Origin: Clostridia bacterium | Lineage (GTDB): Bacteria; Bacillota; Clostridia; Christensenellales; Borkfalkiaceae | Direction: 5' to 3' | NCBI GenBank assembly: GCA_014804995.1 | Contig: JAAUYS010000080.1 | Coordinates: 20,343 to 84,342, forward strand | Length of the DNA stretch: 64,000 bases | Part shown: one piece after another, positions 5,748 through 63,963 of the stretch | Position numbering within the stretch: position 1 is the stretch's first letter | How the letters are laid out: each line of letters begins with the position of its first letter | Program-made: the position numbers and the translations under genes | Notes under the pieces: model-generated | Told to the model about the DNA's origin: nothing | What the model saw: only the letters and a program-made list of their open reading frames with translations | Database searches by the model: none

Positions 5748-8309
5748 ATGACTAGAAGTTTATTTAATACTCCACGTCGTAGAAGATATGATATTGGAGG
5801 TGCTAGGGACAATGTAAATAGTGTTACTGGTAGTTCATGGGGAGCAGGTAAAGGAATGGTAGGTTCTAGTGCTAGTAAAGCTGGAAGTTATGGAGCTAGT
5901 GCGGGAACTATGGCAGGTTCTATTGCTGCAATGGCAGGTGTGGGAGCTTCTCTAGGTTCAGCTGTTCCAGTAATTGGTACAGCTATCGGAGCTATAGCTG
6001 GTGTACTTGGTGGTATATTTGCTGGTAGAGCTAAAAAGAGAAAAGCTGAGAAAGCTGCTAGAGAAGCAGATAAAACTCATAATTATGAAATAGGTCAAGA
6101 TGCTATTCGTACTGATCAAGTTCAACTAGATCAAACTACAATTAATCAAAATCCTCTAGATATTTATGGGGATAATCCTCAACCTGTTTCTACACCTGGT
6201 ATTTCACAAGTTAATCCTCAAGCACAACAAAAAGTTAATCCTGCAAATGGTTTACCTTATAGACTTGGAGGTAGTCCTAGACATTATGCAGGAGGTGGTC
6301 AAATACTTCAAGTGGCTTCTGATGCTGCTGTTGTTAATGGACCAAGTCATGAACAAGGTGGTGTTCCTTATGGACCTAATGCGGAAGTTGAAGGTGGTGA
6401 AGCTATTATGCAAGGGTCTAATGCTGATTATATTTTCAGTGATACATTGAAGATTGGTAATAGAACATTTGCTGATGCTGCTAAACCTTTAATGAAACAT
6501 AAAGGTTATCTTGAACAACAATTAGGTATTACTGGTCTCATGCTTGGTAAAGCTCTTCAACTTACTGAACGTAGTACTTATGCTATTGATAGAAATACTA
6601 ACAATAGAGAAGCTGAAAAAAGCCAAGCTAAGTATTCGCAAATACTTCAACAGATTCAACAAACACAAGCTGAACTAGATGCTCTTTATAATCAACAAGA
6701 AGCTATGAAAGCTGAAGCTGGTGAAATGAGTGAGCCTAGAACTGAAAGAAGATTTGGTGGTGGTGTTCGTAAATATCGTGATGCAGGTGCTGTTACTAAT
6801 TGGGGTTATACAGGAAGTGGTACTAGTGGCTCTATAGATTTACAAACTGGTCCGCAAATATTAAATGAAGCTTCTCCTGATATTTTAGCTGCTGAAAATC
6901 CAAATACTTCAGTTATAGCTTCTGATACACCTAATGCTTTAGCTAATACAGCAGATGCTTCATCTAAAGGTATGAGTTCAGGCATGGCTAGTGCTATCTC
7001 TGGTGCTATAAACATTGGATTATCTGCTTGGGGTCAAGCTGCTGAAGCTAAAAAACAAAGAGCATTTGCTCAAGCTCCTAGTCATGTTCAACAAGCTATT
7101 GCAGGATTTAGACTTGGTGGTCGTAAGAGATATATAGATGGTGGAAGTATTCAAGTATCACCTTATGCCGATATACCTTATGCTGAAAATCCTACTACAG
7201 AACGTGTTAATAAACTTATGGATTTAAGTAGTGTATTAGAAGATATTAAGATATTAGGTGGTAGAACTAGAAAATTTAAACCTGGTAGTAAAAATTCTTT
7301 AGAAAGTCGTAATGCACAAAAAGCACACGATAAAATTTATAATGATATATTAAAAACAGATTATTTATTATCTGATGATGATTTAAGTTCTTATATAAAT
7401 TCTTTTAAAGCTCCAAATTTATTACCATTAACAAGAGTAAATGATTCAGATTGGAATATTGATGATGATTTACAAAAAAGTACATTAGGATATAGATTGA
7501 AAACATTCTTTAATAATGCTAAAACTAAAACTAATAAAGCATTAACAAGAAGTAATGAAACATTGAGTAATGGACTTAAAAACACTATAGATAAAATATC
7601 TAATAGTGAATATTGGCAAGATGAAAAAGGTAATCTTATTAAAGCTGGAGGTAATCTTCTAACTGGTTTACTTGCCGCAGGTTCTACTAAAAAGTTAGCT
7701 AAAGCTCTTTCTGAAAAAGCTATTCCTGAACGTGAGCTACTTGATAGATTTACTCAAGAATGGGATGTTAATACAGATGCTGCTAGAAAAGAAATTATAG
7801 ATCAAGTTCAAGCATACGAGAGATTTGCTAAAGATAATACTTCAAATGCTCAAATAGCTAGACAACTTGTTCTAAAAGGTAGAAGTAATGGTGCTAAGGC
7901 TCTTGGTAAACTTAAGCAAGATGAACTATTACAAGAACTTGGTATTCGTAATGAAACTAGAAAAGTTAATAAAGATATTGAAGCTAAAAATAAAGAGATT
8001 AAATATCAAAACAAACTTGATAAATTTAATCAGCAAATGCAAGCTCTCTCAATGCTTAATGATAGTAATAACCAAAAACTTAATACTATTAACGGATTGT
8101 TCTCTGATATAGGTTTCACTGTAAATGATCATATTAGAACTAAACGTGAAAGAGCTGCTAATCTCATACATTTACTTAATGATGAAGAAGCTATGAAACG
8201 TGCTGGACAATTAGACATTGCTACATTATTTGATGCTTTTGGTAAGAATAATTCAAATATTCTAACTAAACCTAGACGTAAAGGTGATAGAGTAAAAAAA
8301 TGTGCTTAA
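5748..8309 (+). CDS. virion protein with Gly/Ala-rich hydrophobic N-terminus, four R(L/F)GG..R.Y..GG motifs and a coiled-coil C-half; candidate internal/ejection protein
   Basis: 853-aa ORF. Has GSIAAMAGVGASLGSAVPVIGTAIGAIAGVLGGIFAG followed by KKRK. Repeated motif YRLGGSPRHYAGGG / RRFGGGVRKYRDAG / FRLGGRKRYIDGGS / ILGGRTRKFKPGS. Followed by hairpin terminator 8316-8348. Confidence 0.6.
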   Translation: MTRSLFNTPRRRRYDIGGARDNVNSVTGSSWGAGKGMVGSSASKAGSYGASAGTMAGSIAAMAGVGASLGSAVPVIGTAIGAIAGVLGGIFAGRAKKRKAEKAAREADKTHNYEIGQDAIRTDQVQLDQTTINQNPLDIYGDNPQPVSTPGISQVNPQAQQKVNPANGLPYRLGGSPRHYAGGGQILQVASDAAVVNGPSHEQGGVPYGPNAEVEGGEAIMQGSNADYIFSDTLKIGNRTFADAAKPLMKHKGYLEQQLGITGLMLGKALQLTERSTYAIDRNTNNREAEKSQAKYSQILQQIQQTQAELDALYNQQEAMKAEAGEMSEPRTERRFGGGVRKYRDAGAVTNWGYTGSGTSGSIDLQTGPQILNEASPDILAAENPNTSVIASDTPNALANTADASSKGMSSGMASAISGAINIGLSAWGQAAEAKKQRAFAQAPSHVQQAIAGFRLGGRKRYIDGGSIQVSPYADIPYAENPTTERVNKLMDLSSVLEDIKILGGRTRKFKPGSKNSLESRNAQKAHDKIYNDILKTDYLLSDDDLSSYINSFKAPNLLPLTRVNDSDWNIDDDLQKSTLGYRLKTFFNNAKTKTNKALTRSNETLSNGLKNTIDKISNSEYWQDEKGNLIKAGGNLLTGLLAAGSTKKLAKALSEKAIPERELLDRFTQEWDVNTDAARKEIIDQVQAYERFAKDNTSNAQIARQLVLKGRSNGAKALGKLKQDELLQELGIRNETRKVNKDIEAKNKEIKYQNKLDKFNQQMQALSMLNDSNNQKLNTINGLFSDIGFTVNDHIRTKRERAANLIHLLNDEEAMKRAGQLDIATLFDAFGKNNSNILTKPRRKGDRVKKCA

Positions 8310-11149: not shown

Positions 11150-14100
11150 ATGCCTATAGATGTTTCAAAATTAACAGATATACTTGATAACCCAAGTTCT
11201 CAAAGTCCAGTATTAGATACTTTTTTTAAACCTGTTTCTACATATCTACAAGAAAAAGGTATTGATAATAAATTATTGAATAATTTACAAAAACATAATA
11301 ACAATTCTTTAGCTATTACAAAATATAATGTAGATAGATATATTGAATCTAGAGCTAGAAATCAATCAACAAGTGACAGAATCGGTAATGCTTTAGCTCA
11401 AACAGTAGGTGAAGTATTAGGAGGTTCTATAGAAGGTTTAGGTTCTATTATAGGATTATTACCTAAATTATTTAGTACTAATGAAGCATATACTAGAAAT
11501 CAATTAGAAAGATTAGGTAATAGTATTAATGAAGGATTTCGTGAAGCATTTCCTATTTATATGACAGAAAAAGCTCAAAGTGGAAACATGCTTGAACGTA
11601 TGCAAGGAGGTGGTTATTGGGCAACAATGACGCCTAGTGTTTTAGGTTCTGCTCTAGGAATTATGCTTCCTGCTCGTGGAGCTTCTATGTTACTAGGTAA
11701 AGCTGGTAGATTAGCAATCAATGGTCTTAGCAAATCTCAGAAAGCTGCTAAAATATTTAAGCTAGCTAATGAAATGCAAAAGGCTAAAGCTATATCTAAA
11801 TTTAATAAATTTAATGATATTTATGCGTCGGCTTTTATTAGTAGAACTCTTGATTCTTCACGTGAGGCTTATGGTGTTTATGAAGAACAAAAACAATGGT
11901 TTTACGACAACTATAATAAATTTATTAAATCAGATAAAGATGGTAATAATATTTTAAATATAGATAATAAAGAAATTAAAATAGACAATAATAATATTGA
12001 TAAGATTGCTCATGAATATGCTAGCCGAGCTGCTGAAAAAGGTTATTGGAATTCTATGAGTAATATAATTTACGATATTGTTGAATGGTCTGGTATAATG
12101 GGTGCTTCAAATACTCTTAGTAAAGTTACTAGAGATAACCTTAGAAAAGCATTAGGAAAAGGTGATAAATACGCTATTATGCGTGCTCTTCATGCAATAC
12201 CTGCGGAAGCTAAGCGTAATCTTATTGGTGACGCTGGACGCTTTGGTTATGGAGCATTAGCTGAAATGGCAGATGAAATGACTATGAGTATTGCTATGTC
12301 AGAAGGTACTCATTCTGCTAAAAAAGAATATGGCTTTCTTAGTGAACAAGAGAATTATGCAGGTTTTAGTGATAGACTTCATGAATATCTTAGAAACCCT
12401 GATATTTGGACAGAAGGTATTGGTGGTTTACTTGGTGGTGCTGGCATGCAGACTGTTATGCCTTATCTTGAACGTAAGCTAAATAAGAATCAAATTAAAA
12501 AAGAAGATGCTTACCTTAAAGCTCTTGAACATTCTGTTGATGCTATGCGTTCTGGTATGGATAATATTATAGATGCTTTAGCTAAAGGTGATTTAGTTGA
12601 AGCAAAAAATGCTGAAATGCAATCTATAATTAATCAAGTTGCTGCTAATACTCTTGACGGATCTCTTGACTTTTATATTGAGATGTTAAAGAATATGCAA
12701 GAATCTATGGATCATATTCTTGATATTAAACGTAGAAAAGAAGCTAATCAACAAATAACTGCTGAAGAACAAATGGCTTTAGATAGTGCTGGAGATCTTG
12801 TTAATAATCCTAATATATTCAAGTCTATGCTTAATAAGATTGAAACTATTAAGCCTATATTTGAAAGAAATTATGATAGCGTTCCTCAATATGTTGATAA
12901 AGACACTCAATCTATTTTATATGAAATAGCTAGACGTAAAAGTGTATATGAATCTCATAAGGCTTTAATTGAAGCAGAATTAAGTGCATTAGAACAAGAT
13001 GACATAGAAGAGTTTTATCAGATACAAGATAACATATTAGACGATTATTTAGAAAGTAAATATACTGATGAAAATGAACGTGCTAATAAGAAAGCTGAAA
13101 TAACTAGATACACTAAGAATAAAACTCAATTAGAGAATGCTAAACTTCAAATTAAATATTTAGAGAAACAACAGAATGAGTTAGACAAAAAGATTAAAGA
13201 AATAGATGATGCTTTAAATGAAGTTAAGCCGGAAGAGAAAGATACTATTGGAGAACAGCTAAAGTTAGCTAAAAATAATGCTGAACATAGAAAGAAAAGC
13301 ATCGATACACGTAAAACAGAAATAAATAAAACTATTGATAGATTAAACGAGGAAGCTAAAGATATTACTCAATTAGATGCTACAGATAAAGAAAAAGCTG
13401 AATTGTCAGAAATATTCAAACATAATAAACTTGACCCTGATAATTATAAAACTGACCTTAGATTTAGAAAGGCTCTTTTAGATAGTGAACTTGATTATCT
13501 TAATTCAGAAGATGCTTATAAGGATATTCAAAATGAACTTGAAGCCTATAGACGTACTATTGACACAGAAGTAGCAGAAGATACAAAAAAAGAACTTGAT
13601 AAATATAATACTAGTGAAGAACTTAAAAAACATCAATCTGATTTTGAATCTAGTGAAGAAGCTAAAAAGGCTTATGAAGCTAAACTTAAACTTTTAGAAA
13701 CTCAAGAAAAAGCTGAAAGTGAAAGAGAAGCTAGAGCTAAAGCTGTTCAAAAACAAGATATTGAGAATCGTACTAAAGAATATCTTGAAGCTAGAGGTTA
13801 TACTTCTGAACAATCTAAAACAGATAACAATTTAGAAATACCTAGTATAGACGACGAAGATGTTAAACTTCTTAATCAAGCATATTCTGAAATTCAAGAT
13901 AAAGATATTTCATTAAGTGCATATCTTAGAGGTAAAGCTATGGATGCTACAAATGAATCTATACGTAGTATTTATTCAAGGCTTGCCGACTATGTAGATG
14001 CTATTAATGAGTATAATGAAAATGCTTTAGATTTTAGTAGAGTTAATGATTCTATAACTATTGCCAAAAAGTTATTAACTGATTATACAGGTTTAGCTTT

Positions 14101-17100
14101 TATGACAACAGCTTATGATCTTAAGAATGGAAAAACTATTAGTTTTAATCCTAAAGATTATAGTAATATAGCTGAACAAATTAGAGCATTTCTTATATAT
14201 GCTAATGCTGTATTAGCTGATAAAGAAACTAGAACTATTCAACATAAGGATGATAATTTTGGCATTAATGATGTTGCTGCGGATACTATTAATAAATTAC
14301 GAGATAGATTTCTTAAGCAAATAGAAGATATTCAAAAGAAATATGATAAAATCTTAACACTTTTAGGTACAAAAGGTAAAACTTATATTGAAATAAATGG
14401 AACTGATTATGAAGTAGAAAAGGTTTTAGATGAGGGTATGACTGGTCCTATGATTTATGTTAAAGGTCTTAGAGCTTTTAGTGCTTTCATTACAACTCCT
14501 TATTCTGATGCTGATGCTACTACTAATTATATTCTTAAAAAGAAAGCGCAGAGTTCCGCTCCTGACCTCACCTCTTCCTCTACTGGGGGCAGCAAAGCTA
14601 CTATTAGTTCCACAAGACAACAAATAAGTAACAACGAAGTTAAGCCTAATGAAACTAAATCTACTGTTGAGACTACTATAAATACAGAAGATGATTTAGA
14701 ATCTAATGAAGCTGAAGAAGCAGATGTAGCTGATATTGAATTTGATATAGAAGATGGTAAAACTGCTATTAATTTTAAGTTGGAACATTTTAATACTTCT
14801 GATGCTACTGATTTTCTATTAACATTAATGGAAAATCCTAATTATGATAATGATACAGCTAATGCTATAATAGCTTTATGTAATATCTTAGTTAAAACTG
14901 GTTTTCATAAGAAAGATTATTATAAAAAACTAATTACAAATTATTTAAACGATAATCTTACTGAGAAACAACAAATTATAGTTAATGCTGCTAAAGCTTT
15001 AGCTAAATCATTTAATGTTGATCTTGATTCGGATATATGTTCTTTGAATCCTAAAGGTGATATTGACTATGCTGGTATTTATAATACTATAAATCAATTA
15101 CCTAAATTGTATACACAAGATCTTAAAAAGTATTCTAAATCTATTAAAGGTCTTATTGAAACATTAAAGACTTTTGAAACAAATGATAATGCTGCTAAGA
15201 TGGCTAGAGTAATTTTAGGAGACATTCTTATGAATCCTGAAGCTACTGAAACTAGACTTGATGAACTTTTATCTCAAAGTGCTACAATGCTTAAAGATAT
15301 GATGACTGATGAGTTTATTAATAATCTTAGTTTAATATTTAATCTTATTAATTTCATTAATGATCAAAGAGGATTTAAATCTACTTCTATGAATATGTAT
15401 GACTTGATTACAGGTTTACGTATGCACAGAGGTGATCATTATAGTGATATAACTGATGAAATTTTATCACTTGTTACTACAGTTAAATATATTAAAGAAC
15501 AACTTGCTTCTAGAGTTGATTTTTATAATAACAAATATAAACAAACTAAAGATAAATATTTTAAGAATGCTTATTTGACTTATAAAACATTTAATGATAT
15601 TCTTGATATTGAAGGTAATTATACAGATCTTAAAACTGAAGCAGATGTTATAAGATTTATTAATAACAATCCTATTATATCTTTTGGTAAATCACATTCT
15701 GGTCTTGATATAATATTTGATAATAATGATACACCTCATATTATATTCGATGATTTTGTCAACAGACCTTTTTTAGGTATATATGATATACTTCATCAAA
15801 TTGATGTTGGTGACGAAATTGAATTAGTTCCAACAAATAATGAAGAAAATCCTAACAAAGTTGAATACGATATTGTTTATAGAGACAAAGTTAAAAATAC
15901 TAAACATGTAATAGGTCATATGCCAGCTTTAGAAACTATAGAGAATGGTATAGCTTATGTTATTAAAGGTAGAAACAATGTAAACAATGTTCGTAAATTT
16001 AAGTTTACGCAAGATGATGCTAATATATTTGCAGAATTTCAAAATGTTCTATTTCCATTTATTTATAATTATGGTATAGCTTTTGAAGATAGAAATAATG
16101 TTTCAGAAAAAGAAAGAGAAGCTGCACTTAAAGCTGTTGAAGTATTCTCTGAACAAATTAAAAAATCTGCTTATAAAGATTTAGTTGAAGCCTTTAAAAG
16201 AGTCATTTATGGTAATCTAGAATTAGAACAAATTAATCAGATTATAGATAGTGGTCTTGATACAATACTTGTCGCAGGTAAATCTGAAAAAATAGGTGAA
16301 GTAAAATCTGAAAATCTTCCTTTATCTATAGGTCAAATGTATCAACTTTGTAAAGATATGTTTGCAGGAGTTGTTCTTACAAAAGCTATGGGTAGAGGTA
16401 ATAAAAGTGCTGAATCTATTTTACATACTTTTGAGAATTCTATTAATAGACGAGCTTCTGTATTTAAACATAATCAAGGTATTAGAGGTGATATAAAAGC
16501 TACCGGTAATCATGTTATGACTATTAGTAGTATTGGTGCAGGACAAGTTATAATTAATGAAGACTCTCGAAAAGAAGATAATGAAATTAGTGATGGTCTT
16601 CCAATTATGCACCATAGACAATCACTTGTTAAAACTTTATGTCCCGTTAATATATTTGGTAAAGATCAGTTTAAACCTACAATACTTCAAATAGATGAGA
16701 ATGGTTTTGGATTTGATCCTGAAACAGGTTTTGTTGCTCCTTTAAATAGATTTGCTACTAAGCATACTGGTGATCAATTTATTAAAGGTCGAAATAAAAT
16801 GGTTTGTGTTGTTCAACAAACTAAAAATGTATTTACAACATTTCCAGTTAAACCTAATACTATAATGGGTTCTATTACTGACGAAACTAGAGAAGCTAGA
16901 ATTCAAAAACTTCTTAAGTATAATAAATATATCTCTAATGCTATGTTTGAGATATTTGATTTATTAACTGAAGAAATTAATGTTTCAGATGGTAGAATTA
17001 ATGTAACTAATAGACTTCAAAATGTTATTATTTGTGAAGAATCTTCTTCTGTTGAAAAAAATGATATTCATTTTCAAACAAGTAATGACACTTCTGGTAA

Positions 17101-18961
17101 TAAAGTATTTATAATGTTTAAAGTCACTTATGGTACTGATAAAGAACGGTATATTAAGATGGCTTGTGAAACTACTGAATCTGGAGAACATATTGTTCGT
17201 ATTTATACTGGTAAAGATAAAGACCATGTAGCTTTATATAATGGATCTACAAGTAATCCTAGTTATACTGGTATTGTTACATATAAATTAGGTAATACTA
17301 AAGACGGCATTTATACTAAAGATGAAACTGGTAGAAAAGCTCTTACTTCTTATTTGTATCAGCAGATACCTAATTTAACTAGACAATTCGGTATGGTTAA
17401 TGGTATGGCTGTTGCTAAAGATGTACCTAATAAAGATATGGATCAAAGAAATAATGGCTATGTAGATCCTGTGACAGGTGAATCTTATAAGAACATATAT
17501 GATTACTATATGCGTACTAATGCTATATATAGTGACATAGGTGCAATTAGAGATGAACAAGGTATGAACGTAAGTAACGTAAGTGCTAGTGGTACAAATC
17601 CTGTTAAATTTTCAATAACTTCTAAAGAATTTGATGATCCTAATGCTCAATCTAATCAAACTTTTTATAGTGCTGTAGATGCTATGAAAGAAGTTCAGAA
17701 AGGTGATTATAAAGAGGATTGGGAATCTATTAATGAAGCTGAAGCTATACTTGAAGAAGAAATGGGTGTTAAACCTGTTTATATAGTTCATACTATGAAA
17801 GCTGATAGAATAACTGAAACTGGTTCTGCTCAGCCTAGAAAAGTTCAAGATGGTACAAATGGACTTCCTAGAGGATTTAATTTTAATTCTTATAGAATTG
17901 ATATATTTCATAGTCCAGTATTTGCTTCTAAAAAAGCTAATAAAAATTATTTGACTAAGACTATGTTACATGAGATGCTTCACGTATTCATGATGAAGCA
18001 TTATAATATTACTCAAAGTGAACTTAGACTTAAAGAAATTAGAGAACAAAAAGAAGCTCTTATACAATTTCATAATGAAGAAGTAACTAAGTGGATTAAT
18101 GATTTTATTGCATCTATTAAGGCAGCTAAAGAACGTATAGCTAAAGCTACTGAACCACTAAGTCATAATGATTCTATTATAAATGCTGCTTTAAATACTG
18201 GCGAAACTAGTGTCATAGACCAACTTATAACAATATTTACTAATGAAGTAAATGAAGTAAATGCGAATATTCAAGAATTACTTGAAGCTAGAGCTAAAGG
18301 TACAGATGTTATTATTAATGGTCAACAAACTTTACAAGAAGTATTTACATACGCTTTCACTGAACCTCAAGTATATCATATTCTTAATGCTCTTGAATCA
18401 GTAAGTGAAAGAGATGTTAATGCTGATAATATGCAAACTCCTACAATATGGCAGAAGTTTTTAGATGTTATTCGTAAAATATTTGCTAGAATATTTAATA
18501 TTGCTAATACAGAAGTAAATAAAGGTTCATCTTTAGAACGTTTGATGGATGTAATAAATAAAGTATTTACTAATGGACCTAGTGACATTGATATTAAAAG
18601 TTTTACTATTGGTGATTCGTTGAACTTAGCAGACCCCGGTAGGGAAGAAAATGTGGACAGGAGCGATACTAATAGTGAATCTAGTGGAGATTCTGCTGAA
18701 GAAGCTAATACTGCTGAAGAAGTCGAACCTACTTCTTCTGAAACAAATGAATCTGAAAATGAAGAAGAAACTACTAATGAAGACGATGATGATTTCGGTG
18801 ATTTATTTGTAGATACTAATCATGGTGATATTAAAGCATCTAAAGTTCTAACGAATAATGAGCAAAATAATGTCAAAGATGCCGTAAATTATTTGCATAA
18901 ACTTAATGATATGTCAAATGAAAATATTATCTTTGACGAAATGGAACAAAGAATATGTTAA
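11150..18961 (+). CDS. giant virion protein (2603 aa) with zincin-type HExxH metallopeptidase motif
   Basis: 7.8-kb uninterrupted ORF. HEMLH at 17969-17983 (aa 2274-2278, context LTKTMLHEMLHVFMMKH). Long E/K-rich coiled-coil-like stretch at about 12.9-13.9 kb. Acidic S/E/T-rich tail. Lies directly upstream of the RNAP ORF. Confidence 0.8.
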   Translation: MPIDVSKLTDILDNPSSQSPVLDTFFKPVSTYLQEKGIDNKLLNNLQKHNNNSLAITKYNVDRYIESRARNQSTSDRIGNALAQTVGEVLGGSIEGLGSIIGLLPKLFSTNEAYTRNQLERLGNSINEGFREAFPIYMTEKAQSGNMLERMQGGGYWATMTPSVLGSALGIMLPARGASMLLGKAGRLAINGLSKSQKAAKIFKLANEMQKAKAISKFNKFNDIYASAFISRTLDSSREAYGVYEEQKQWFYDNYNKFIKSDKDGNNILNIDNKEIKIDNNNIDKIAHEYASRAAEKGYWNSMSNIIYDIVEWSGIMGASNTLSKVTRDNLRKALGKGDKYAIMRALHAIPAEAKRNLIGDAGRFGYGALAEMADEMTMSIAMSEGTHSAKKEYGFLSEQENYAGFSDRLHEYLRNPDIWTEGIGGLLGGAGMQTVMPYLERKLNKNQIKKEDAYLKALEHSVDAMRSGMDNIIDALAKGDLVEAKNAEMQSIINQVAANTLDGSLDFYIEMLKNMQESMDHILDIKRRKEANQQITAEEQMALDSAGDLVNNPNIFKSMLNKIETIKPIFERNYDSVPQYVDKDTQSILYEIARRKSVYESHKALIEAELSALEQDDIEEFYQIQDNILDDYLESKYTDENERANKKAEITRYTKNKTQLENAKLQIKYLEKQQNELDKKIKEIDDALNEVKPEEKDTIGEQLKLAKNNAEHRKKSIDTRKTEINKTIDRLNEEAKDITQLDATDKEKAELSEIFKHNKLDPDNYKTDLRFRKALLDSELDYLNSEDAYKDIQNELEAYRRTIDTEVAEDTKKELDKYNTSEELKKHQSDFESSEEAKKAYEAKLKLLETQEKAESEREARAKAVQKQDIENRTKEYLEARGYTSEQSKTDNNLEIPSIDDEDVKLLNQAYSEIQDKDISLSAYLRGKAMDATNESIRSIYSRLADYVDAINEYNENALDFSRVNDSITIAKKLLTDYTGLAFMTTAYDLKNGKTISFNPKDYSNIAEQIRAFLIYANAVLADKETRTIQHKDDNFGINDVAADTINKLRDRFLKQIEDIQKKYDKILTLLGTKGKTYIEINGTDYEVEKVLDEGMTGPMIYVKGLRAFSAFITTPYSDADATTNYILKKKAQSSAPDLTSSSTGGSKATISSTRQQISNNEVKPNETKSTVETTINTEDDLESNEAEEADVADIEFDIEDGKTAINFKLEHFNTSDATDFLLTLMENPNYDNDTANAIIALCNILVKTGFHKKDYYKKLITNYLNDNLTEKQQIIVNAAKALAKSFNVDLDSDICSLNPKGDIDYAGIYNTINQLPKLYTQDLKKYSKSIKGLIETLKTFETNDNAAKMARVILGDILMNPEATETRLDELLSQSATMLKDMMTDEFINNLSLIFNLINFINDQRGFKSTSMNMYDLITGLRMHRGDHYSDITDEILSLVTTVKYIKEQLASRVDFYNNKYKQTKDKYFKNAYLTYKTFNDILDIEGNYTDLKTEADVIRFINNNPIISFGKSHSGLDIIFDNNDTPHIIFDDFVNRPFLGIYDILHQIDVGDEIELVPTNNEENPNKVEYDIVYRDKVKNTKHVIGHMPALETIENGIAYVIKGRNNVNNVRKFKFTQDDANIFAEFQNVLFPFIYNYGIAFEDRNNVSEKEREAALKAVEVFSEQIKKSAYKDLVEAFKRVIYGNLELEQINQIIDSGLDTILVAGKSEKIGEVKSENLPLSIGQMYQLCKDMFAGVVLTKAMGRGNKSAESILHTFENSINRRASVFKHNQGIRGDIKATGNHVMTISSIGAGQVIINEDSRKEDNEISDGLPIMHHRQSLVKTLCPVNIFGKDQFKPTILQIDENGFGFDPETGFVAPLNRFATKHTGDQFIKGRNKMVCVVQQTKNVFTTFPVKPNTIMGSITDETREARIQKLLKYNKYISNAMFEIFDLLTEEINVSDGRINVTNRLQNVIICEESSSVEKNDIHFQTSNDTSGNKVFIMFKVTYGTDKERYIKMACETTESGEHIVRIYTGKDKDHVALYNGSTSNPSYTGIVTYKLGNTKDGIYTKDETGRKALTSYLYQQIPNLTRQFGMVNGMAVAKDVPNKDMDQRNNGYVDPVTGESYKNIYDYYMRTNAIYSDIGAIRDEQGMNVSNVSASGTNPVKFSITSKEFDDPNAQSNQTFYSAVDAMKEVQKGDYKEDWESINEAEAILEEEMGVKPVYIVHTMKADRITETGSAQPRKVQDGTNGLPRGFNFNSYRIDIFHSPVFASKKANKNYLTKTMLHEMLHVFMMKHYNITQSELRLKEIREQKEALIQFHNEEVTKWINDFIASIKAAKERIAKATEPLSHNDSIINAALNTGETSVIDQLITIFTNEVNEVNANIQELLEARAKGTDVIINGQQTLQEVFTYAFTEPQVYHILNALESVSERDVNADNMQTPTIWQKFLDVIRKIFARIFNIANTEVNKGSSLERLMDVINKVFTNGPSDIDIKSFTIGDSLNLADPGREENVDRSDTNSESSGDSAEEANTAEEVEPTSSETNESENEEETTNEDDDDFGDLFVDTNHGDIKASKVLTNNEQNNVKDAVNYLHKLNDMSNENIIFDEMEQRIC
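14552..14598 (+). repeat. GC-rich dispersed repeat, copy a (inside 2603-aa ORF, sense; encodes SSAPDLTSSSTGGSK)
   Basis: AGTTCCGCTCCTGACCTCACCTCTTCCTCTACTGGGGGCAGCAAAGC. Confidence 0.85.
17969..17983 (+). other. HEMLH (HExxH) putative zinc-binding/catalytic motif
   Basis: cat gag atg ctt cac, in frame with ORF 11150..18961. Confidence 0.7.
18623..18670 (-). repeat. GC-rich dispersed repeat, copy b (inside 2603-aa ORF, antisense; encodes DPGREENVDRSDT)
   Basis: Reverse complement: AGTATCGCTCCTGTCCACATTTTCTTCCCTACCGGGGTCTGCTAAGTT. Confidence 0.85.
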
Positions 18962-32636: not shown

Positions 32637-32948
32637 TTATGCTTCACTAAAATCAACTTTAGGAGCAGGAATAATAAATTTAAGCATCCTAGCAAGAAAA
32701 GTAACAGATACTTCAAACATTTTACCATTACTAGGATTACGCATTATATAAACAATATTACCTATATATAAATCTGGATCAAGAGATTTAGCTTGAGCTT
32801 TAAATCTAGCATCAGCTGTAGCATACTTCATCACTTTATGTAATATTGTCCAATTACCTGTAAATTGAGGAATCATAGTTCCATCAGGTTTACGAGTAAT
32901 TACATTACCATCACATTCGATATAACATTTATATATTCTTTCTTCCAT
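32637..32948 (-). CDS. hypothetical protein (103 aa), last gene of the minus-strand block
   Basis: ATG overlaps the stop of the upstream DUF932 gene. No motif. Confidence 0.55.
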   Translation of the reverse strand: MEERIYKCYIECDGNVITRKPDGTMIPQFTGNWTILHKVMKYATADARFKAQAKSLDPDLYIGNIVYIMRNPSNGKMFEVSVTFLARMLKFIIPAPKVDFSEA

Positions 32949-33973
32949 TATGCAGCTTTAATAGCACTCTTAGCTAAATCATAAGCTCTCTGATTAAGTC
33001 TATAACTTCCACCTTGTGTCAAAGAAATAAATCTATCAGTTTCACTATTATAATTAGCTACATTGTTAATGTAACAACTAACACCATTATATAACCACAA
33101 TAATGTACCTCTATGTTTTTCTTGACCAACACCTTTTTCAATAACATCTAGCACAGAACCAATTTTATTTTTAAGTTTTGTACTAATAATTTCAGTGTCA
33201 GCAGAATATATATTAGGTGTAACTTTCATATATGCTTGTTGTTCAGAATTAAGAAACAACTTATAAACATATCCTTTAACATTAGCATCAGCAATCTTAA
33301 TACTCCTAAGAGCTTCAAGTTCTTCACGCATAACTTCCGAATAAGCATAAGTATGTCTTATTTCTTCAACAGCCATCATAATAGATTCTTGTACATTACG
33401 TGTATGTTTAAATGAGAATTGTTGTGTACTATTATTAAGTGCTTGATTCAACATATTATTACATATAACTCTTATATTAGTTACAGCACATTTAATAGCT
33501 CCAGACCCATCATGACTATTTGTAAACAATAAATATCTATCAATATCATCGTCATCAGTAAGTCTTAACGAATCAGGAAATTTAGCTGTAACTAACATAG
33601 AAGCTCCATTCTTATAACAACCAGCTGTTTCTATTCTAACAGATCTATCATAGTTACAAACTTGTTCTATAAAATCTAGAGCAACACTATTTTGAACAAC
33701 TTGATATTTAGAACCTACAGCGCCAAATATATAGTTAGTATCTTTACGATAAGTAGCAAAAGAATCAGGTACCTGATAAAGTAGATACTCATGAGGATGC
33801 TGAACAGGATCTATCTTATGATAAGGATTCTCTAATCTAACTCTAGTTTCAGTAATACCTACTTCAAAATCAAGACCTGCTTCTTTAATAGCATCTTCCA
33901 TACTTAAATCTACAATAGATGAACTAATAGAATTAAGTACATTCTTTCGTCTAATGTAATTAGTTACTGGCAT
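32948..33973 (-). CDS. DUF932 / phage-plasmid-like protein
   Basis: FATYRKD..GAVGSKYQVVQN, ETAGCYKNGASMLVTAKF and LLFTNSHDGSGAIKCAVTNIRVICNNML match the DUF932 (TIGR03299-like) pattern as I recall it. Confidence 0.7.
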   Translation of the reverse strand: MPVTNYIRRKNVLNSISSSIVDLSMEDAIKEAGLDFEVGITETRVRLENPYHKIDPVQHPHEYLLYQVPDSFATYRKDTNYIFGAVGSKYQVVQNSVALDFIEQVCNYDRSVRIETAGCYKNGASMLVTAKFPDSLRLTDDDDIDRYLLFTNSHDGSGAIKCAVTNIRVICNNMLNQALNNSTQQFSFKHTRNVQESIMMAVEEIRHTYAYSEVMREELEALRSIKIADANVKGYVYKLFLNSEQQAYMKVTPNIYSADTEIISTKLKNKIGSVLDVIEKGVGQEKHRGTLLWLYNGVSCYINNVANYNSETDRFISLTQGGSYRLNQRAYDLAKSAIKAA

Positions 33974-55250: not shown

Positions 55251-55543
55251 CCATTATAAGCAACAGCACATTGAGCATCATATTCTGCTATAGCTTCACA
55301 AGATACAACGACAGTTAGATTCTTTTGAGCAATAACTATAGAATTGGCAATATCGGCAGCATACGTTATTTGTTGTAATTCTCCTCTTATACCATATTCT
55401 CTAATAATACTCGTTAAATAATCTGCAAGAAACTTTGTATAGCTTTGTTTCTTAAAGTGTATCTCTTTACCATATACACATTCTACTCCATTAGATGTAA
55501 ATATGGCTTCTCCTGTTATATCATTTATTAAATATACATACAT
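55226..55543 (-). CDS. hypothetical protein (105 aa); the last ~12 codons are antisense of repeat h
   Basis: The C-terminus YNGSATPSRE* is encoded by the repeat. Confidence 0.5.
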   Translation of the reverse strand: MYVYLINDITGEAIFTSNGVECVYGKEIHFKKQSYTKFLADYLTSIIREYGIRGELQQITYAADIANSIVIAQKNLTVVVSCEAIAEYDAQCAVAYNGSATPSRE

Positions 55544-61427: not shown

Positions 61428-61684
61428 TGAAAAAGAGTTTTTGGTTAAAGTTAAAAAGGATAATGAAATAATTAGAAAAAAGTTGTTAGAATGAGAGATT
61501 AAAGAATTTATTTAATTAGGAGGAGAAATGAAAGAATTGATAAGAGTTGTGATAGAGGTTGTGGAAGTAGCTCCACTCTCCACTTTACTCTCAACACTAT
61601 TCTCAAAACTCTAAACTCTATACTCCTAATCCTCTAAATAATTCTGTTTATCTCAAACATCTTCATAATTCTCTTTATACTCTT
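61426..61684. other. abrupt base-composition switch: a 145-nt C-free tract, then a 114-nt tract with a single G
   Basis: No C on the + strand from 61426 to 61570. No G from 61571 to 61645, and only one G (61646) up to 61684. The switch is centred on the GTGGA-agtagc-TCCAC hairpin at 61561-61576. Confidence 0.8.
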
Positions 61685-61694
61685 GTTCTACTTT

Positions 61695-61789
61695 CTGTCG
61701 ATTAAACGGACGTTACAACTAACAAAATATATTATTACTATCTTGTATAAACTTAATAGTATTAATAATATTCTGCTGATTAAACGGAT
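61695..61789. promoter_or_regulatory. 17-nt direct repeat pair CTG(T/C)(C/T)GATTAAACGGA
   Basis: 61695-61711 CTGTCGATTAAACGGAC and 61773-61789 CTGCTGATTAAACGGAT, with starts 78 bp apart. Confidence 0.5.
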
Positions 61790-61799
61790 TGCTCACGGC

Positions 61800-61847
61800 A
61801 AAAAAAAGTAAGCAATGAAGCTACACAGTAGTAGCTCCATCACTTAC
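61800..61847 (-). terminator. strong intrinsic terminator after 61866..62492
   Basis: 17-bp stem (3 G-U pairs): GTAAGTGATGGAGCTAC-tactgt-GTAGCTTCATTGCTTAC, followed by T8. Confidence 0.8.
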
Positions 61848-61865
61848 CAGAGAAAAGGATTAACA

Positions 61866-62492: not shown

Positions 62493-62528
62493 AAAAAAAG
62501 AGAGACTACTAATAATAGTAATCTCTCT
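62493..62528 (-). terminator. strong hairpin plus T7 abutting the ATG of 61866..62492
   Basis: 13-bp stem: AGAGAGATTACTA-ttat-TAGTAGTCTCTCT, then TTTTTTT, then ATG with no spacer. Confidence 0.65.
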
Positions 62529-63131: not shown

Positions 63132-63154
63132 AATAAGATAAATTTAAGAATTAA

Positions 63155-63226
63155 TTAATTGATTATCTGCAATAAGTGCATTGAAAGTAAGGGAGGAATC
63201 GAACCTCCCCAAATACCATATTACTT
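63155..63226 (-). ncRNA. tRNA-like element 1: 45-nt acceptor/T-arm minihelix (63182-63226), a 4-bp hairpin, and ATAATCAA
   Basis: Minus strand: AAGTAAT-ATGGTATTTGG-GGAGG-TTCGATT-CCTCC-CTTACTT-T-CA, then ATGCActtatTGCAG-ATAATCAA. The T-loop TTCGATT has a G53-C61-type closing pair. There is no D or anticodon arm. Confidence 0.6.
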
Positions 63227-63646
63227 TTGTAAATCTCTAAGGTCAGCATAAAGATCTTTCATACCAGCCTTAGCACACGCAAGCAATAAGTTAATATCAT
63301 TTGTACACTGAATATCAACTATTTGCTTATGATCATAATGATGAGTATAAACAGCATCTTCATAATCTATTTCCTCATCGTCATCTTCAAATTCATCCTT
63401 GAAGTATTGAGTAACTCCAGCAATACACTCTTTGTAAACTACATCAACAAATTTACCAAAGAGAGAATCTATCTTATTTAATAGTTTCTCACCAATGAAT
63501 AAATCATTGATTGGTTCACCGTCAATTGTGTTAGCATCAAGTTTATAACGCTTGTAGTCATTAGCATCATTGCCAATCTCAATAGCTTTGTTCAATACTA
63601 CAGCATTAACTCTCTTCACTTCGGGGAACATAATTTTTGTTTCCAT
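63221..63646 (-). CDS. hypothetical acidic protein (141 aa from ATG 63646); paralog of 61866..62492
   Basis: The first 32 codons of the ORF-track entry (start 63742) are read-through of tRNA-like element 2. METKIMFPEV is the plausible start. Confidence 0.55.
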   Translation of the reverse strand: METKIMFPEVKRVNAVVLNKAIEIGNDANDYKRYKLDANTIDGEPINDLFIGEKLLNKIDSLFGKFVDVVYKECIAGVTQYFKDEFEDDDEEIDYEDAVYTHHYDHKQIVDIQCTNDINLLLACAKAGMKDLYADLRDLQK

Positions 63647-63669
63647 AATTAAATAATTTTGTAAGTTAG

Positions 63670-63745
63670 AAATTTGATTATCTGCACCACTATTGTGCAT
63701 TGTAGCATGCCTAGGAATCGAACCTAGGCTAGTACCATACATGCT
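63670..63745 (-). ncRNA. tRNA-like element 2: 45-nt acceptor/T-arm minihelix (63701-63745), a 5-bp hairpin, and ATAATCAA
   Basis: Minus strand: AGCATGT-ATGGTACTAGC-CTAGG-TTCGATT-CCTAG-GCATGCT-A-CA, then ATGCACaatagtgGTGCAG-ATAATCAA. Both stems differ from element 1 by compensatory changes. The connector is 11 nt in both. Confidence 0.6.
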
Positions 63746-63963
63746 TAATGAAATTTAATAGTTAATCCCGAATCATCAAATGTAACATCATTATCTCCGA
63801 TAAAACAAGATATACCACAATCATTATACATTTTACGTGCATAATACTCTGCTAATTCCATTGTATCAAATACAATAGTACAAGCATAATCTTTGACAGA
63901 AATCTCAGTTACATTAAAGATAACACATTTTCCATAACAATTCGTAATGTAAACAGTTTTCAT
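63745..63963 (-). CDS. small hypothetical protein (family Q)
   Basis: CTIVFDTMELAEYYARKMYND core. Confidence 0.5.
   Translation of the reverse strand: MKTVYITNCYGKCVIFNVTEISVKDYACTIVFDTMELAEYYARKMYNDCGISCFIGDNDVTFDDSGLTIKFH

Follow-up and report, generated by a model that had tools for sequence, protein, structure and literature searches.

Two tRNA-like elements between small genes

The window, that is, the whole 64-kb stretch of crAss-like phage DNA analysed, carries two copies (A and B) of a small structured RNA element among early genes on its minus strand, with the sequences quoted for them in the earlier note. Each copy contains a T-loop (TTCGATT) closed by GG/CC, with ATGGTA located 8 nt upstream, and the motif GGTTCGATTCC occurs exactly at these two sites only within the window. 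Both copies are internal to a transcription unit ending at ordinary intrinsic terminators, and the 141-aa ORF between them has no Pfam match. The features of the locus are as follows.

63745–63747, minus strand: stop codon TAA of the upstream 72-aa ORF (63745–63963); its final A is the first closing-stem base of A
63700–63747, minus strand: element A, complete (leader UA, three-way junction, trailer ACAA; model positions 1–48)
63740–63745, minus strand: A, closing (acceptor-like) stem, 5' strand AGCAUG, partner 63704–63709 (CAUGCU); 6-bp register from family covariation
63733–63739, minus strand: A, vestigial D-arm U-A-UGG-U-A, with pairs U:A and A:U and a UGG triloop, from family covariation
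63729–63732, minus strand: A, 4-nt linker CUAG (family consensus Y-W-N-R)
63710–63728, minus strand: A, T-arm, 6-bp stem CCUAGG/CCUAGG with 7-nt T-loop UUCGAUU at 63716–63722
63704–63709, minus strand: A, closing stem, 3' strand CAUGCU
63700–63703, minus strand: A, trailer ACAA (family N-C-W-A); base 1 corresponds to the discriminator
63674–63699, minus strand: A, lineage-specific cassette part, hairpin UGCAC-AAUAGUG-GUGCA (63683–63699), then GAUAAUCAA (63674–63682)
63221–63646, minus strand: 141-aa ORF between A and B, unrelated to the ORFs between the cassettes of relatives
63181–63228, minus strand: element B, complete (leader AA, three-way junction, trailer UCAA)
63221–63226, minus strand: B, closing stem, 5' strand AAGUAA, partner 63185–63190 (UUACUU); holds the stop codon TAA of the 141-aa ORF (63221–63223)
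63214–63220, minus strand: B, vestigial D-arm U-A-UGG-U-A, from sequence and family covariation
63210–63213, minus strand: B, 4-nt linker UUUG
63191–63209, minus strand: B, T-arm, 6-bp stem GGGAGG/CCUCCC with T-loop UUCGAUU at 63197–63203
63185–63190, minus strand: B, closing stem, 3' strand UUACUU
63181–63184, minus strand: B, trailer UCAA
63159–63180, minus strand: B, lineage-specific cassette part, hairpin UGCA-CUUAU-UGCA (63168–63180), then GAUAAUCAA (63159–63167)
62499–62528, minus strand: intrinsic terminator hairpin with U7 (z = −4.5) that ends the polycistronic unit carrying A and B; context, outside the element

Both copies had been described as beginning at the stop codon of the upstream gene, which proved correct: the TAA of A (63747–63745) overlaps the first stem base, and that of B (63223–63221) lies within the closing stem. 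The minimum-free-energy folds of A and B consist of a 12-bp helix broken by an 11-nt 5' bulge, with moderate stability (−14 to −15 kcal/mol), and the isolated copies give modest folding z-scores of −1.6 to −2.1.

Structure and distribution of the family

A covariance model (R2) was trained on other phages only, with the window and its cassette lineage left out. The model recovered A with 67.6 bits (E 1.2e-16) and B with 64.6 bits (E 8.7e-16), both over its full length (positions 1–50 of 50), while the next best match within the 64-kb window reached 15.6 bits. A structural scanner found 100 matches in the fetched loci and 0 in reversed sequences; the first scan was seeded on ATGGTA...GGTTCGATTCC, and the alignment from that scan carries the corresponding ascertainment bias. 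The homologue search proposed in the earlier note yielded 115 distinct covarying members, and the copies are not full-length tRNAs with misplaced boundaries. At least 58 of 85 distinct matches in viral contigs are family-like, compared with 11 of 87 in cellular genomes (596 Gb), in which the search pattern mostly strikes genuine tRNA-Gly genes; the cellular matches are spread over several phyla. A and B belong to a family of structured RNAs about 45 nt in length that is widespread and confined almost wholly to viruses; it spans very different phages, including a prophage with an atypical copy in the isolate genome of Lactobacillus sp. ESL0246 (L153).

The family appears to be new, being without description in Rfam 15, ARAGORN or the literature searched; its absence from Rfam 15 and the tRNA finders makes it currently invisible to annotation. 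Phage biology would gain with it a sizeable and sharply defined structured RNA class. BLAST searches of three family regions, seeking a cultured or annotated phage, returned no matches, and a protein neighbouring the element had distant actinophage matches only. Viral and metagenome collections held no exact match to the window. The element is absent from the first 50 kb of each of phi14:2 and cr127_1 and occupies only some gene junctions where it is present (2 in the 64-kb window), which argues that it is not a general strategy of crAss-like phages.

Analysis of the 115 distinct members revealed that 98.2% of stem positions are paired. Compensatory double changes were observed in 11 of the 12 pairs, and none of 500 shuffles was equally good, so the case for a selected structure, made at first from two copies, now rests on the whole family. 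Two details of the structure had to be revised. The proposed register of 7 acceptor and 5 T-stem pairs does not hold, since only 26 of 49 sequences form the seventh acceptor pair; the correct register is a 6-bp closing stem and a 6-bp T-stem, the sixth T-stem pair being formed in 47 of the 49 with five pair types. The element had also been described as lacking a D-arm, whereas the connector holds a covarying 2-bp mini-stem, U-A-UGG-U-A, around a UGG triloop. In the family alignment, the outer pair is UA in 92 members, CG in 9, AU in 5, and GC in 1, and the inner pair is AU in 107 and UA in 6; one-sided changes number 0, and the model did not encode these two pairs. With this vestigial D-arm, the element is a three-way junction equivalent to a tRNA without the anticodon arm.

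The UGG triloop and the loop-closing G-C pair of the T-arm are invariant (115 of 115 each), the T-loop reads UUCGAUU in 107 of 115 members, and 104 of the 115 have a connector of 11 nt. The closing stem and T-arm form a 12-bp stack, as in tRNA, with closing-stem sequences that are arbitrary and resemble no particular tRNA. In the trailer (N-C-W-A), C occupies the second position in 96 of 115 members, and CCA is encoded in 2. Pairing of this trailer with the connector UGGU was considered and found unsupported, the third trailer base being A as often as U. At positions unused for selection, G·U outnumbers A·C by 31 to 7, indicating that the structure is formed by RNA read from the gene-sense strand. 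The earlier suggestion of a selected RNA or single-stranded DNA therefore stands for RNA, and single-stranded DNA is disfavoured.

Comparison with known RNA classes confirmed that A and B cannot be decoding tRNAs, with no tRNA or tmRNA found in the window by ARAGORN and no match to Rfam at gathering thresholds. A canonical tRNA is a cloverleaf with an anticodon arm and a D-arm of 3–4 bp; the element has the canonical T-arm (T-loop UUCRANY, closing G53-C61 pair) and the GG of the D-loop, but between its closing stem and T-stem there are just 11 nt. Both copies show all the parts that define the new family (R1, R2): a 6-bp closing stem, U-A-UGG-U-A, a 4-nt linker, a 6-bp T-arm, and N-C-W-A. Like the element, the tRNA-like domain of tmRNA lacks an anticodon arm and combines an acceptor stem and T-arm with a reduced, GG-containing D-loop; tmRNA alone has a long mRNA-like and pseudoknot domain in place of that arm, the alanine identity pair G3:U70 and a CCA end, whereas just 4 nt connect the halves of the phage element, in which G·U pairs are infrequent and have no fixed position. 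The tmRNA assignment was rejected, given the negative ARAGORN result and the absence of an insert between the halves. The C4 RNA of P1/P7, the CI RNA of P4, and the M3 RNA of phi80 are phage non-tRNA RNAs matured by host RNase P. Such hairpin-type substrates have no equivalent of the T-loop and depend on a 3' RCCA-type end (PMC5499578), in contrast to the phage family, with its canonical T-loop and avoidance of CCA (2 of 115). This class was also rejected, and an Rfam search including the curated phage RNA families returned nothing in the window.

The ordinary tRNA sequence of the T-arm, and a partial alignment of tRNA-Sec to copy B in a permissive Rfam search (17 bits, against a threshold of 47), would be expected if the elements were decayed tRNA genes or tRNA-derived attachment-site remnants without present function. 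This origin is extremely improbable. The exact architecture and its compensatory changes are kept in 115 distinct sequences, the deletion boundaries are constant, and none of 90 elements has a tRNA gene closer than 1 kb, a result that also excluded membership in a tRNA gene cluster. An attachment-site remnant would lose the 5' stem strand and the UGG loop. The reading as decayed tRNAs is effectively refuted by the covariation data. The suggestion of an attachment remnant or of a genomic tag or primer found no support, as the elements occur in multiple copies per operon, on the sense strand, beside unrelated genes, and with the 5' stem strand and GG loop retained.

Genomic context and the lineage-specific cassette

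Analysis of the genomic context indicated that the elements fill short intergenic gaps between small unrelated genes, with 48–50 of 64 located on the strand bearing the longer flanking ORFs. The upstream stop is mostly within 20 nt, most often overlapping the stem; the next gene follows about 40–55 nt downstream of the element, with the next start at a median of 40 nt. UAA or UAG occupies model positions 1–3 in 20 of 64 strict members, and a stop there was confirmed as the real stop of the upstream ORF in 9 of 52. Up to 7 copies occur per 2 kb, every one at an ORF end, and at one locus of densely packed genes (L224) the only sizeable gaps are those that hold the elements. The 105 flanking proteins fall into 84 clusters, and a conserved partner gene was rejected on this ground.

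The hairpin and ATAATCAA that had been noted after A and B are not family-wide and belong to a lineage-specific cassette. The hairpin was also said to covary between the two copies, where the difference is an extension rather than a compensation (TGCA/TGCA versus TGCAC/GTGCA); covariation is seen only in related contigs (GAC/GTC, GACA/TGTC, TGCA/TGCA). A hairpin of 5 bp or more follows 21 of 61 elements, compared with 15 of 61 natural-sequence control regions, and on this comparison the notion of a general 5' protective cap for the downstream fragment was dropped as well. In this phage lineage, the element is fused to the short hairpin and an AU-rich stretch as a repeated intergenic cassette. 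The lineage-specific module (hairpin and GAUAAUCAA) was found in 23 viral and 17 marine metagenome contigs. Cassette B is 81–86% identical in nucleotide sequence to cassettes of otherwise unrelated contigs, in which different genes follow. A putative third cassette at 55415–55482 was a chance match within an ORF, and synteny with another locus (L079) was rejected, the flanking proteins being unrelated.

The PeSL of T4-type phages combines a sigma-70 early promoter with a terminator-like stem-loop. Like the phage cassette, PeSLs are repeated intergenic cassettes that flank small variable early genes, with neighbours differing between genomes. The phage cassette shares this spread between unrelated genes; it differs in having a tRNA mimic as its conserved core and no promoter-like site. 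At cassettes A and B, we found no sigma-70-like promoter (counts not above shuffles) and no intrinsic terminator, the sole terminator match being the T-arm of B.

The high identity to marine contigs that share nothing else, together with the absence of characterised early promoters for crAss-like virion RNA polymerases, would suit a role at the DNA level, in which a phage polymerase uses an extruded hairpin as its promoter or origin, or a PeSL-like recombination cassette shuffles early genes. We regard such a role as very unlikely: the excess of G·U over A·C and the strand bias with genes point to RNA, what is conserved in the sequence matches the T-loop and D-loop of tRNA, phages as varied as the Lactobacillus prophage carry the family, and the cassettes lack a sigma-70-like promoter. 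Spread of the cassette by recombination may still take place as a side effect.

A candidate processing signal for host tRNA enzymes

Among the roles raised in the earlier note, punctuation of the transcript by RNase P or RNase Z appears to fit the genomic context best. Judged from sequence, there is about an even chance that the element marks the polycistronic mRNA for splitting by host RNase P and/or RNase Z, which makes this the best explanation. Three host enzymes, namely RNase P, RNase Z, and the CCA-adding enzyme, would recognise the 12-bp stack and the 'elbow' of T-loop and GG and gauge its dimensions. Cleavage would occur just after the discriminator-like base, by RNase Z, and/or where the closing stem begins on its 5' side, by RNase P; one operon message would thereby yield separate mRNAs with fixed termini and set free a small tRNA-like RNA. 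The element would then do in phages what t-elements do in plant mitochondria and what tRNA punctuation does in mitochondrial transcripts.

By form, the closest kin of the phage family are the t-elements of plant mitochondria (Arabidopsis nad6, ccmC, and cox1; Brassica orf138) and archaeal tRNA-like elements. T-elements that lack an anticodon arm but keep a T-loop direct RNase P/Z cleavage at mRNA ends, and a released t-element can gain non-encoded C residues (PMC1920247, PMC5499578). A and B fall within the structural definition of a t-element in the same papers: they carry GGTTCGATTCC, a closing stem of 6 bp and a D-arm reduced to a vestige, lack an anticodon arm, and lie on the sense strand between ORFs. 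Both groups are tRNA-like structures inside an mRNA precursor, with an acceptor-like stem and a T-arm, a D-arm that is degenerate at most, and an anticodon arm that is absent throughout the phage family and in some t-elements. The T-arm motif of t-elements, GGTTCRANYCC, corresponds to GGTTCGATTCC in the phage element. T-elements lie at mRNA ends, sometimes ending the mRNA ahead of its stop codon. They are a handful of heterogeneous, degenerate tRNA copies in organelle genomes, whereas the phage family is large with a tight consensus; the likeness implies no common ancestry, and cleavage of the phage element is inferred.

In mitochondrial tRNA punctuation and in MALAT1/mascRNA, RNase P and RNase Z cut long or polycistronic transcripts at tRNA shapes, the cut site may overlap stops, and the released tRNA-like RNA receives CCA. 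These eukaryotic systems use full tRNAs or cloverleaf-like mimics with a remnant of the anticodon stem, unlike the phage element, which has no anticodon arm; the Rfam models of these families have no match in the window.

The position of the stop codons bears on which enzyme would act. Because the stop codon of B lies inside the closing stem, a cut by RNase P between −1 and +1 would strip the upstream message of its stop, which favours 3' cutting by RNase Z or slow cleavage. Bacterial RNase P prefers U at −1; in the family, A is more common than U at this position, which counts against a cut by RNase P. The scarcity of CCA in the trailer (2 of 115) suits RNase Z, which is inhibited by an encoded CCA. 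Two further points weigh against the processing model: it leaves the conserved C next to the discriminator-like base without explanation, and only some gene junctions carry the element.

The tight abutment on the upstream stop, the greater and more variable distance to the following start, and the moderately stable fold could also be explained by a folded RNA that is never cleaved and acts as a barrier to 3'-to-5' exonucleases for the upstream cistron or as a translation insulator or coupler; a stop within or overlapping the stem would be harmless if no 5' cut were made. A plain GC-rich hairpin would suffice for such a function, which leaves the near-invariant T-loop, UGG, and G-C closing pair, the fixed 11-nt connector, and the 12-bp stack unexplained, and the modest z-scores of the isolated elements also speak against it. 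We therefore consider an uncleaved RNA improbable, with a slim chance of being correct.

The main rival reading, possible if unlikely, holds that the product counts more than the cut: an excised and CCA-tailed minihelix would accumulate as a small RNA and be a decoy or sponge that binds factors specific for the acceptor/T-arm half of tRNA. The targets of most interest, named with the same reserve, would be anti-phage attackers of tRNA 3' ends, namely Cas12a3, toxSAS/CapRel-type pyrophosphokinases, and MenT/AbiE nucleotidyltransferases. The site among small, fast-evolving early genes, the usual home of anti-defence functions, is consistent with a decoy, as are the virus-specific family and the retained tRNA invariants. 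However, the closing-stem sequences imitate no particular tRNA, and the family shows no tie to any one defence system. Its members follow gene boundaries, keep the stop codon at a constant position, and recur within an operon, a pattern that resembles punctuation more than a dedicated small-RNA gene. Since no CCA is encoded, decoy activity would require processing and CCA addition beforehand. If the decoy reading were true, it would link the family to the recently recognised immune attack on tRNA 3' ends.

A dual role, in which host RNase P/Z excise the mimic as early-operon punctuation and the CCA-tailed minihelices accumulate as decoys in many phage lineages, is doubtful. If true, it would be an RNA-based anti-defence hidden in intergenic regions that soaks up Cas12a3, toxSAS/CapRel, and MenT/AbiE-type enzymes.

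If the element is a processing signal, bacterial viruses would use the tRNA-punctuation principle of mitochondria and plant t-elements, borrowing universal host enzymes to set mRNA ends with no factor encoded by the phage. Among natural RNAs that display a tRNA elbow and a 12-bp ruler, the element may be close to the lower size limit, which would make it a useful minimal substrate for work on how RNase P, RNase Z, and the CCA-adding enzyme recognise their targets; synthetic operons and guide-RNA arrays could possibly employ it as a short part for processing or insulation. Among the downstream genes, some are preceded by Shine-Dalgarno sites and others are not; this mixed use, together with the several phyla of the cellular matches, fits reliance on a universal host factor.

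Architecture and covariation of the tRNA-like element

The two window copies of the tRNA-like element occupy the following positions:
63700-63747, minus strand: element A
63181-63228, minus strand: element B

Copy A, together with what follows it, reads TAA-GCATG-T-ATGGTA-CTAG-CCTAGG-TTCGATT-CCTAGG-CATGCT-ACAA-TGCAC-AATAGTG-GTGCA-GATAATCAA (63747-63674, minus strand), and copy B (63228-63159, minus strand) differs from it in its stems. The exact GGTTCGATTCC occurs in the window only at these two copies, and both fold as RNA into a helix of 12 bp that carries an 11-nt bulge. ARAGORN detected no tRNA or tmRNA across the whole 64 kb and Rfam 15 gave no match in the window at gathering thresholds, in line with the earlier note's view that the copies are tRNA-like rather than ordinary full-length tRNAs. 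All that Rfam 15 returned in permissive mode was a partial alignment of tRNA-Sec (17 bits) to the T-arm of copy B. A covariance model of the family, R2, trained without the window and the window's cassette lineage, scored the two copies at 67.6 and 64.6 bits, with the next match at 15.6.

The stems had been delimited in the earlier note as 7 and 5 bp. Comparison of 49 sequences revealed that the seventh acceptor pair is formed in only 26, whereas a sixth T-stem pair is formed in 47 with five pair types, so that both stems are 6 bp. The broad alignment comprises 115 distinct sequences, including the further, more divergent copies recovered in the fetched loci by another covariance model, R1. 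In this alignment 98.2% of the stem cells are paired, both partners change in 11 of the 12 stem pairs, and none of the shuffles or slid registers came near the observed pairing, so the selected structure proposed from two copies holds across the family. The only invariant stem pair is the G-C that closes the loop, just as G53-C61 is invariant in tRNA. The connector UGG is invariant and the T-loop reads UUCGAUU in 107 of 115 sequences, although the conservation of ATGGTA and of the T-loop letters is overstated, since most members were found by a pattern fixing those letters. The connector is 11 nt long in 104 of 115, and the 3' trailer follows N-C-W-A, with C in 96 of 115 and CCA in only 2 of 115.

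Analysis of the connector revised the claim that the element has no D arm. T directly precedes ATGGTA in at least 90% of sequences, and this base covaries with the last base of the hexamer (U:A 92, C:G 9, A:U 5, G:C 1); hexamer bases 2 and 5 covary as well (A:U 107, U:A 6). These two pairs, which are not encoded in the covariance model, show zero one-sided changes, and their variants are found with many unrelated closing stems. The connector thus forms a 2-bp stem around a UGG triloop, a vestigial D-arm, and the element is a three-way junction, equivalent to a tRNA minus the anticodon arm.

Distribution of the family and the lineage cassette

IMG/VR was scanned with ATGGTA-N8-GGTTCGATTCC, a pattern that leaves the outer stem free, and at least 120 contigs matched. 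In most of the matches listed the outer stem is complementary with unrelated sequences, and after dereplication 58 of the 85 listed passed the 6 + 6 stem test. The same pattern gave 87 matches over 596 Gb of cellular genomes, mostly genuine tRNA-Gly genes failing that test; only 11 are family-like, all in MAG contigs or prophages, and one of them comes from a Lactobacillus isolate and has an identical counterpart in an IMG/VR prophage. By these counts the family is essentially a viral one, with hosts in several phyla. Genes downstream of some members, but not of others, have clear Shine-Dalgarno sites.

No matching Rfam 15 family was found for the window or 13 representative loci, and no description of the family was found in the open-access full-text literature. 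For the crAss-like virion RNA polymerase, the published study reports no common motif upstream of early transcripts, the element is absent from the first 50 kb of phi14:2, and a search for a link to any cultured phage found none. Organelles and long RNAs of eukaryotes already provide examples of tRNA-like processing signals as a kind; what appears to be new is this family, with its architecture and its presence in phages. An atypical member at 1480-1760 of L153 (Lactobacillus sp. ESL0246, NZ_REHC01000008.1) has A for U before AUGGUA and the trailer AUAG; it lies in a ~600-nt non-coding gap, is followed by a GC-rich stem and a T run, and may be a stand-alone prophage small-RNA gene rather than an intergenic punctuation mark.

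The earlier note had also described a covarying hairpin, then GATAATCAA, after each copy. Across the family, hairpins (stem of at least 5 bp) that directly follow the element are no commoner than those in control regions (21/61 vs 15/61), and the hairpin was rejected as a general feature. Its covariation stands within one lineage (UGCA/UGCA, GAC/GUC, GACA/UGUC), in which the cassette runs element, CAA or CGA, short hairpin and AU-rich stretch. Contigs carrying this cassette number 23 in IMG/VR and 17, mostly marine, among metagenomes. Cassette contigs (L224, L079, L209-L248) share 81-86% identity over ~60 nt with window copy B (63151-63223), they have no further resemblance to the window at the nucleotide or translated level, and the genes downstream of the cassette differ from contig to contig. 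Such sequence comparison suggests that the cassette may move between genomes or else be under unusually strong constraint or selection. ORFs of ~305 aa adjoin cassettes in L224 (7727-8647; only distant matches, in actinophages) and L079 (4756-5670).

Placement at gene boundaries and proposed role

What lies embedded at gene boundaries is a conserved sense-strand RNA, a copy of the tRNA elbow and acceptor/T-arm stack. At positions unused in sequence selection, the T-stem has 24 G·U against 7 A·C and the closing stem 7 against 0; of 64 elements, 48-50 share the strand of the longer flanking ORFs. Element sites are short gaps between same-strand ORFs; in the locus L224 the genes are otherwise tightly packed, with no sizeable gap elsewhere, and in L052 the stop codon of an ORF of 57-99 aa marks the beginning of each of seven copies within 2 kb. 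The upstream stop codon is mostly at most 20 nt away and occurs in two modes. In the first, UAA or UAG fills model positions 1-3, so that the last stop base is the first stem base. In the second, the stop codon lies 10-13 nt upstream of the element. In copy B the stop codon is inside the stem. The next start codon follows at a median of 40 nt downstream. The 105 flanking proteins (median lengths 108 and 126 aa) fall into 84 clusters, and the elements thus have no partner gene.

In 14 of 58 members an extra GGU, as GGU(A/U/C), directly adjoins the closing stem on its 5' side, and the upstream stop is 10-13 nt before the stem; these members (in loci L002, L003, L006, L017, L018, L021, L043, L048, L050, L051, L065, L092 and L117) are a second leader class. 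In no case among 90 elements did ARAGORN place a tRNA within 1 kb. Only once was a true tRNA seen near a family member: in L079, ~800 nt downstream of the second cassette, 6532-6605 is a genuine tRNA gene (Rfam, 70.9 bits).

The stack of exactly 12 bp, the T-loop and the GG loop serve RNase P, RNase Z and the CCA-adding enzyme in recognising and measuring tRNA. Such features would, we infer, be pointless for a mere hairpin, and together with the avoidance of an encoded CCA, which fits an RNase Z substrate, they favor a processing signal. The element would then act in phage mRNA as the counterpart of plant-mitochondrial t-elements, which lie at mRNA ends, are cut by RNase P and RNase Z and, like the family, can be without an anticodon arm while retaining GGTTCRANYCC (PMC1920247, PMC5499578). 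The frequent overlap with stop codons argues that the key cut would be on the 3' side, or else that 5' cutting would deliberately inactivate the upstream message. The main alternative is that what matters is the released minihelix itself, which might for instance be a decoy for effectors attacking tRNA 3' ends, such as Cas12a3, which reportedly holds the tail as well as the acceptor stem and the T-arm (PMC12851939); the arbitrary stem sequences and boundary-locked placement point instead to punctuation. The punctuation and decoy readings are mutually compatible.

Host phage and the minus-strand arm

The window belongs to a divergent crAss-like phage, with a G+C content of 29% and two opposed gene blocks. 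It encodes a CrAss_Ring_1 tail protein and a family B DNA polymerase with at best 37% identity to that of cr127_1; two giant ORFs have sizes typical for the crAss-like virion-packaged RNA polymerase region. A DUF932 protein is also encoded (32948-33973, minus strand; E 5e-38). The giant ORFs and the terminators of the minus-strand arm are:
11150-18961, plus strand: giant ORF, 2603 aa
18979-32349, plus strand: giant ORF, 4456 aa
62528-62499, minus strand: strong intrinsic terminator hairpin, 13 pairs, z = -4.5, then T7; ends the small-gene unit holding A and B
61848-61807, minus strand: strong intrinsic terminator hairpin, 18 pairs, z = -5.6, then T8; ends the next gene

Elements A and B are located at the upstream end of the minus-strand arm, where many small ORFs precede the replication genes, in the order 72-aa ORF, element A, 141-aa ORF, element B, 85-aa ORF and 80-aa ORF. 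Both terminators close their units, indicating that ordinary terminators are in use on the early arm. No sigma-70-like promoter or terminator was found at the window cassettes, so both elements lie inside a polycistronic unit. The ORF of 72 aa that immediately precedes element A (63745-63963, minus strand) has a weak HEPN_RnaseLS match (E 0.0019, 19 bits, below the cut-off of 29), which is not relied on. A ~440-nt non-coding gap (61428-61865) just past the second terminator may be a regulatory or promoter region; inside it, an 18-nt direct repeat, TCCGTTTAATC[A/G][G/A]CAGAA, occurs twice (61771-61788 and 61693-61710, minus strand).
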